Of a stretch of DNA of 39,449 bases, positions 39,001 to 39,449 are shown one piece after another. Position numbers: made by a program. The stretch is taken from positions 1 to 39,449 of the IMG/VR virus record IMGVR_UViG_2671180847_000006; one strand, written 5' to 3'. This DNA comes from a virus (taxonomy: Duplodnaviria; Heunggongvirae; Uroviricota; Caudoviricetes). Positions within the stretch are counted from its first letter, which is position 1; each line of letters begins with the position of its first letter.

Positions 39001-39449
39001 CTTGCATGGGGTGACGCCAATAATCAACAGGTGAAACTGTCGATGCCGGAACTGGAAGAGCTGGCGGCAGCACTGGCTCAGGCGCAGGTCGATCGCAATG
39101 ACGAGATTTATCGCCGTCAGCGTGAAATGAAAGAGGATCTGAACAATCTGGAGGATTTGGGTTCAATCCGAGCATTTGGTATTGGCTAATAAATCAATCG
39201 CAACTGGTGTTTAGAACCCTCCCGACTTTTGAAGGTTGGGAGGGCTGGGGAAACGGTTATTAATTGAGGCAATGCATAACAAGCTTTAACAAAAAGCCTC
39301 AAAAAAACATTCTCCAAAACCAGAACGCAACTGATTGATTTTGGTGAAAGACACAACGCGGTTGCTTTCAACAATAAAACCCTTTAAAAACCAACTTATT
39401 TCATTGAATATAAAGGATTAATTATCTATATCGCTCACCTTCTTATTCA

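Follow-up and report, generated by a model that had tools for sequence, protein, structure and literature searches.

Phages 21 and e14 insert in the 3' end of icd, supplying a substitute gene end. A substitute end of this type has also been described for Rac in ttcA (PMC4632033), and several prophages have been reported from the junction of potB and potC in Escherichia coli: potC is an insertion site of Stx phages (PMC8065619), PP_potB occurs in O157:H7 clade 8 (PMC9997748), Phi-CFT073-potB has been described as Rac-like (PMC4632033) and a compound 'prophage 5 (potC)' has been documented (PMC10925052). For the architecture of the attachment site itself our point of reference is phage lambda, whose P arm carries the sites P1, P2, H1, X1, X2, F and H2 and whose P' arm carries H' and P'1-3, and in which retroregulation of int by sib is established (PMC5300877).

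We analysed a stretch of DNA of 39,449 nucleotides from a virus of the Caudoviricetes (IMG/VR record IMGVR_UViG_2671180847_000006), hereafter the window, and report that its end, positions 39190-39449, is almost certainly attR, the right junction of a lambda-type prophage that has a Rac-like early region and is integrated inside the 3' end of potB, where this gene of the potABCD operon borders potC. The att is of an already known kind and sits at an already known E. coli insertion site, the last codons of potB. The right boundary can nonetheless be fixed exactly, with phage DNA extending to 39435 and a 14-bp core following at 39436-39449, and the insertion site can be named as the 3' end of potB. 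An initial annotation of this DNA had proposed, from the AT-rich end and a hairpin, a possible prophage boundary or attachment region after the last fibre-assembly gene; this proposal has held up, in that the bases are host-identical from 39436, inside the window, and potB carries on in relatives. The features on which the following argument draws are listed here, with strand where one applies:

37154-38626: fibre gene, 490 aa, 'prophage tail fibre N-terminal' (Pfam phage_tail_N, 1.7e-63)
38623-39189, plus strand: last phage gene, a DUF4376 protein of 188 aa in the tail-fibre-assembly position (Pfam DUF4376, 4.7e-16)
39190-39435: phage P arm of attR, AT-rich and non-coding save for its last 18 nt, identical beside potB in the lysogen P13-6
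39217-39244: stem-loop of 12 bp with loop TTGA, starting 27 nt past the stop codon of the last late gene
39296-39308, plus strand: degenerate arm-type site, a candidate only, from the arm alignment, GCCTCAAAAAAAC (CTCTCGAAAAAT in relatives), 12-14 bp upstream of the perfect site
39310-39320, plus strand: putative integrase arm-type site TTCTCCAAAAC (complement GTTTTGGAGAA), with an exact match at 39311-39320, recurring in relatives
39328-39340, minus strand: IHF-consensus site AATCAATCAGTTG (consensus WATCAANNNNTTR), overlapping the invariant block ATTGATTTTG at 39334-39343
39402-39422: most conserved block of the arm, CATTGAATATAAAGGATTAAT, containing the substitute potB stop codon
39418-39449, minus strand: 3' end of the host gene potB, 32 bases, translation …NKKVSDIDN*, with PGAP potB annotation over the match
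39436-39449: 14-bp att core CACCTTCTTATTCA (TGAATAAGAAGGTG in the potB sense), present in one copy in K-12 and two in P13-6

When the window end was aligned with P13-6 and with the uninterrupted potB/potC junction of K-12, host-identical bases started exactly at CACCTTCTTATTCA, and to the left of 39436 the window was unrelated to the K-12 locus, an abrupt switch from phage to host. The minus strand from 39447 to 39418 reads NKKVSDIDN*, in which the phage supplies five PotB codons (39421-39435) and the stop (39418-39420). The full PotB of lysogen P13-6 ends in …LLNKKVSDIDN* and that of K-12 in …LLNKKVELE*. The 18 phage nucleotides beside the core replace the lost C-terminus of PotB (ELE* becoming SDIDN*), and the potB reading frame is restored. 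The earlier statement that the AT-rich end contains no convincing ORF is right for 39190-39417 but missed the end of host potB on the minus strand at 39418-39449. A megablast search of complete E. coli genomes with the last 827 bases of the window found 24 genomes matching over at least 80% of that length, the best being 93.5% identical, and potB, which encodes a permease of the spermidine/putrescine ABC transporter, was annotated under the right end in all 24. The 246 non-coding bases of P13-6 are 100% identical to window 39190-39435, and potB continues past the position of the window end both in P13-6, whose arm is 100% identical over 260 bp, and in L054, a metagenome contig that differs at two positions.

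AT-rich DNA after the tail-fibre genes often holds morons in lambdoid prophages, which speaks for a different reading of this stretch, namely that in place of an att arm it contains an sRNA, an accessory gene of small size or the beginning of a moron region that reaches past the window. A 62-aa ORF with a TTG start on the minus strand (39186-39374) may be counted on the same side. Yet host potB starts 228 nt past the last phage gene, and relatives go on into potB, potA and pepT; in P13-6 the order is tail fibre, DUF4376 gene, 228 nt, and then these three genes on the opposite strand. In addition, no Rfam 15 family reached threshold (the best scores were 16.9 and 15.4 bits, against gathering cutoffs of 57 and 47), a consensus scan of 38600-39449 found no promoter-like site, and a tRNA scan of the region found no tRNA. 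The ORF, which is the only one in 39190-39417, was rejected as a small gene because relatives have indels of 7 and 16 nt that disrupt its frame. We consider this reading scarcely credible, and the earlier suggestion that a further accessory region begins here has to be given up, since phage DNA ends 246 bp past the last tail gene.

Comparison with an uninterrupted host locus and a search for direct repeats matching the other prophage end had both been recommended as checks on a prophage boundary, and both bore it out. The core 14-mer has a single occurrence in the window and one copy at the uninterrupted potB/potC junction of K-12, whereas in lysogens it is repeated on the integrase side of the prophage: in P13-6, TGAATAAGAAGGTG is found at the end of potB and a second time 7 nt ahead of the start codon of potC, with different neighbouring sequence on both sides, and the copies flank a prophage of ~37 kb, the second lying between the integrase gene and potC. 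Because two copies with differing flanks border the P13-6 prophage and K-12 has one, the 14-mer is the att core, the sequence common to phage and host. Where the initial annotation had allowed for phage coding sequence running on past the window with no repeat or host junction, the relatives have both the potB junction and the core repeat.

The P13-6 prophage spans potB to potC and ends with exonuclease, excisionase and integrase genes, 166 nt, and then potC. In STEC383, which matches both window ends, the order after the exonuclease gene is xis, int, two small cargo genes, the P' arm, the core and potC; the attL core there (L057 1578-1591) is CACCTTTTTATTCA, with one mismatch to the attR/attB core. 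As in lambda, the integrase of relatives combines an arm DNA-binding and a catalytic domain: the P13-6 protein has Pfam domains Arm-DNA-bind_1 (PF09003, 3.7e-21) and Phage_integrase (PF00589, 2.1e-18), is ~45% identical to lambda Int over its full length and matches the lambda Int structure PDB 1Z1B with E = 3e-54, while Exc is found in the P13-6 excisionase. Neither an integrase nor a second core copy nor attL is present in the window; attL, xis and int fall outside it because the window starts inside a recE-like exonuclease gene, part of the Rac-like early region. The core repeat and the integrase were accordingly seen in relatives, one of which has an arm 100% identical to that of the window, and from the layout in P13-6 and STEC383 we infer an integrase beside the other junction of the window's own prophage. 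Since the P'-int side of relatives adjoins potC, the window end is attR (P-O-B') by the lambda convention. The window is a prophage cut short at its left, with int, xis and attL missing, that ends exactly on the last base of the att core.

Two observations concern the missing side. On the minus strand, window 1-525 holds the recE-like exonuclease, then come dicB, DUF1482 and ydfA/B-like genes, and relatives have xis, int, the P' arm and attL a further 4-6 kb to the left of the equivalent of the window start. The mismatch in the attL of STEC383 might have arisen when a heteroduplex was resolved, in which case it would indicate the side of the crossover, or it might be a mutation with the potential to impair excision.

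The AT-richness on which the boundary had first been proposed is real: GC content is 0.366 over 39190-39435 and 0.335 over 39245-39435, against 0.533 in the preceding gene and 0.504 in the whole window. The same P arm sits across the core from the integrase in intact attP-like junctions, found between the tandem prophages of strain 97-3250 (L007), in three IMG/VR contigs (L034, L035 and L038) and in a metagenome contig (L049). In these junctions, among them the attP of L034, the motif TTTTGGAGA(A/G)A occurs in three tandem copies with 11-13 bp phasing in the P' arm and in one perfect copy in the P arm, and the arm-type 9-12-mer is also found in the attL of P13-6 and of STEC383; in the window, the copy of this motif is the arm-type site at 39310-39320, ~125 bp from the core centre. 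The IHF consensus has only two matches in the 39.4-kb window, one of them inside the P arm. Int would be expected to contact the arm-type and core sites, and IHF its consensus site.

Conservation within the arm points to further sites. Positions 39312-39342 are invariant in 15 unique arms, an invariance partly forced by the search pattern that collected those arms, whereas 39403-39414 are invariant in the 15 arms independently of that pattern. The surrounding block, 39402-39422, in which TGAATATAAAGG forms an imperfect inverted repeat of the core sequence CCTTCTTATTCA, is likely a protein-binding site, either of Int core type or for IHF or Xis. Within the core, CTTCTTA (7 bp, 39439-39445) shows no variation, even where the arm is followed by a different flank, and is a candidate for the strand-exchange (overlap) region; we hold this assignment at low confidence because the mismatch in the STEC383 attL falls inside it. 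An attempt to derive Int core-type sites from inverted repeats around the core was abandoned, no convincing symmetric pair flanking a 7-bp spacer being found; the only inverted repeat near the core is one of 12 nt (39405-39416/39438-39449) with a 21-nt gap. In the literature we found no map of the core or of the arm sites of this attP, and the detailed map given here comes from our own sequence comparison; what it depicts is a routine instance of the lambda paradigm.

By analogy with lambda, a tyrosine integrase with an N-terminal arm-binding domain would bridge the arm-type sites and the core, IHF would bend the AT-rich arm, and strand exchange would take place inside the core, with CTTCTTA as the candidate 7 bp. 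Excision would then proceed by recombination of attR with an attL that should lie a few kb past the left end of the window, beside xis-int and potC. Intact P-core-P'-int junctions in viral and metagenome contigs and between tandem prophages lend indirect support to an excision that restores attB and attP and would depend on Int, Xis and IHF. A search of the phage collection with the integrase yielded no free-phage attP, as the two 'phages' whose integrase is 98.9% identical are excerpts from prophages and contain potC and potD as well.

Set beside lambda attP/attR, the locus shares a common core that is short (14 bp, against 15 bp in lambda), AT-rich arms, three tandem arm-type repeats at ~+50 to +90 on the int side, as for lambda P'1-3, with one or two at ~-125 to -140 on the other, an IHF-consensus site in the P arm, where lambda likewise has P1, P2 and H1 far from the core, and the order late genes, P arm, core, P' arm, int, xis. 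It departs from lambda in the sequences of core and arm sites (TCTCCAAAA here, the CAGTCACTAT type in lambda), in having no b region between the tail genes and attP, in a distal hairpin without the U-tract of tI, and in a host site inside the 3' end of potB instead of the intergenic gal-bio site, so that the phage must rebuild the end of a gene. In this last respect it is like phage 21 and e14 (icd) and Rac (ttcA), where the arm likewise gives a short in-frame replacement and a new stop, leaving the host protein full-length with few changed terminal residues. Unlike icd and ttcA, which have no downstream cistrons to be cut off, potB is in the middle of an operon, so integration parts potCD from the potA promoter. 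With the reported potB/potC prophages (Phi-CFT073-potB, PP_potB, 'prophage 5 (potC)' and the Stx phages at potC) the locus shares the host site and a Rac-like early content (the recE-like exonuclease, with dicB and a racR-type repressor in relatives). The exact boundary should help annotation and prophage typing at this potB/potC hotspot, which also takes Stx phages, although the element itself is of no new kind.

The split of potABCD was also looked at from the host side. On integration potAB keeps its promoter, and potCD comes to lie downstream of xis-int in the same direction of transcription (L003 36678-38995; L057 775-3959). A simple consensus scan found no promoter- or terminator-like site between int and potC in P13-6. 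In STEC383 the interval separating int from the P' arm contains a hairpin with a T-run, as well as two oppositely oriented cargo genes.

The hairpin in the P arm had been placed at about 39212-39240 with a stem of 10 bp. It is real, but lies about 5 nt further on, at 39217-39244, and has a stem of 12 bp, the arms quoted earlier being the inner 9 nt. A 5' arm CCCTCCCGACTT (39217-39228), the loop TTGA (39229-39232) and a 3' arm AAGGTTGGGAGGG… (39233-39244) form 12 pairs on the plus strand, of which eight are G-C and two are G.U; on the minus strand these two G.U pairs of the window variant become A.C mismatches. Compared with shuffles, the 116 nt of 39185-39300 fold with -34.7 kcal/mol (z = -3.1) on the plus strand and -27.5 kcal/mol (z = -1.9) on the minus strand. 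The suggestion of a terminator stands as far as a G+C-rich stem-loop goes, but this is not a canonical intrinsic terminator: there is no T-run after the stem on either strand, the tails being CUGGGGAAAC (plus) and UUCUAAAC (minus), and the consensus scan of 38600-39449 found no terminator-like site.

A stem-loop occupies the same place in all related arms, with differing sequences. Its arms are as follows:

window: CCCTCCCGAC/GTTGGGAGGG
L004: TCTCCCCGAC/GTCGGGGAGA
common type: CCTCCCCGAC/GTCGGGGAGG
L040: CTTTCCCG/CGGGAGAG

The table of pairs was anchored by hand on CCCGAC/G(T/C)YGGG, MAFFT having misaligned the 3' arms. Compensatory double changes occur at stem positions 1-4 among the four sequence types, and as these four positions have changed on both sides with pairing kept, the stem is under selection. 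The stem-loop is kept behind three different upstream genes (the DUF4376 gene, a lambda-type tfa gene and an unrelated ORF), and is found in remnants whose tail gene is a pseudogene. By this distribution it appears to belong to the att module and not to the tail gene. It marks the distal end of that module, at the place where the late operon on the plus strand meets leftward transcription, whose source is int when the phage is free and potAB when it is integrated, and there it would most likely define or protect RNA 3' ends.

Other roles can be considered for the stem-loop. It may be that it serves the late (tail) operon on the plus strand, as a terminator or 3'-stabilising hairpin unrelated to integration: it begins just behind the last late gene, the window variant folds better on that strand, and types A and D have G.U pairs there. 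It lacks a U-tract, however, the commonest variant (type C) favours the other strand, and the hairpin persists behind three unrelated upstream genes and in tail-pseudogene remnants and is absent from phages that have the same DUF4376 gene and integrate elsewhere. We regard such a role as possible, though not probable. That type C has a longer, 13-bp stem on the minus strand agrees instead with a counterpart of lambda tI/sib, acting in the int sense and only when attP is intact, where it would end pI-type transcripts or offer an entry for RNase III and 3'-exonuclease that lowers Int; in the prophage the stem-loop would be parted from int, freeing Int for excision. The position is in line with this, since the stem-loop and int are on opposite sides of the core and the stem-loop, at the outer end of the P arm, is 192-225 bp from the core centre, the lambda tI/sib hairpin lying 150-190 bp from its core, just beyond arm site P1, and so is the fact that the stem-loop travels with the att module. 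But the int-sense tail is UUCUAAAC in the window and CACUUCAAG in type C, not a U-tract (lambda tI has UUUUUU), with 10-13 bp the stem is short for an RNase III substrate, and the A.C mismatches of the window variant weaken it on this very strand. A tI/sib counterpart, which would be compatible with the identification of the locus as attR, seems unlikely to us.

The signals for strand conflict, and they come from few independent variants, with G.U pairs favouring the plus strand (types A and D) and stem length the minus strand (type C). One could also imagine a sib/tI analogue without a U-tract that is part of the integration module, capping int-sense transcripts in the free phage, and so tuning Int, and forming the 3' end of the truncated potAB transcript in the lysogen, with potCD driven from the int side. 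This is a speculative proposal with the odds well against it; if it were true, a prophage family found in ~18% of E. coli genomes would couple expression of a polyamine transporter to prophage state.

Upstream of the arm, similarity to the phages Rac-SA53 and phiP27, which use other sites according to the literature or their record names, stops at query base 537, window position 39159. The last ~30 nt of the DUF4376 gene, the hairpin and the arm are consequently not common to these phages. In contrast to the prophages reported at potB/potC, the window has a tail module that is phiP27-like or Mu-like, with two fibre/assembly pairs, and that is only 82-93% identical to the listed E. coli relatives. 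The two pairs are consecutive, at window 35572-39189, the first of 335 aa and 182 aa and the second of 490 aa and 188 aa. In P13-6 (L003 1499-3531), the distal fibre pair and the att arm are joined to another tail module, which is P2-like (gpU, gpX, gpD-like). The block of fibre gene, DUF4376 gene and P arm appears to move between prophage backbones as a unit.

Related arms are frequent in the species. A copy ~78% identical to 39294-39435 is carried by 985 of 5426 complete E. coli genomes (~18%), and in nearly all of the matches listed it adjoins potB; only 39 genomes cover at least 80% of the arm query, that is, including the hairpin-proximal part. At the DNA level, the only arm-bearing record in the phage collection is LC744180.1, a Stx1a-converting prophage whose copy is 79% identical. 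Scanning genome contigs with the 20-mer ATTGAATATAAAKGATTAAT gave chance matches in AT-rich genomes only, with no clear Enterobacteriaceae.

Several contigs have the arm in other surroundings. L039 (~4760-5100, IMG/VR) has the conserved P arm, but its distal hairpin is a different one (CGTGCCCGGCA…TGCAGGGCACG, after which comes TTCTT) and its core, AACCTTCATAT, has diverged and adjoins other flanking DNA; it seems that arms of this family serve at more than one core or host site. In L033 (~5320-6716), as in L037 and L046, this P arm runs past CACCTTCTTAT into unrelated DNA, in which an ORF for a lipoprotein-like protein of 273 aa follows within a few hundred bases; this protein may be the cytolethal distending toxin subunit CdtA. 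The junction could be a fossil attR inside a CDT-carrying prophage, the mark either of cargo acquired by imprecise excision or of a secondary site. In E. coli 97-3250 (L007 1-1810), the end of a remnant prophage comprises espM2, which encodes a type III secretion effector, a pseudogene for tail-fibre assembly and the P arm, and the core links it to the P' arm and integrase belonging to a second prophage; the two stand in tandem at potB with an attP-like hybrid junction between them, and could excise as a unit or recombine.
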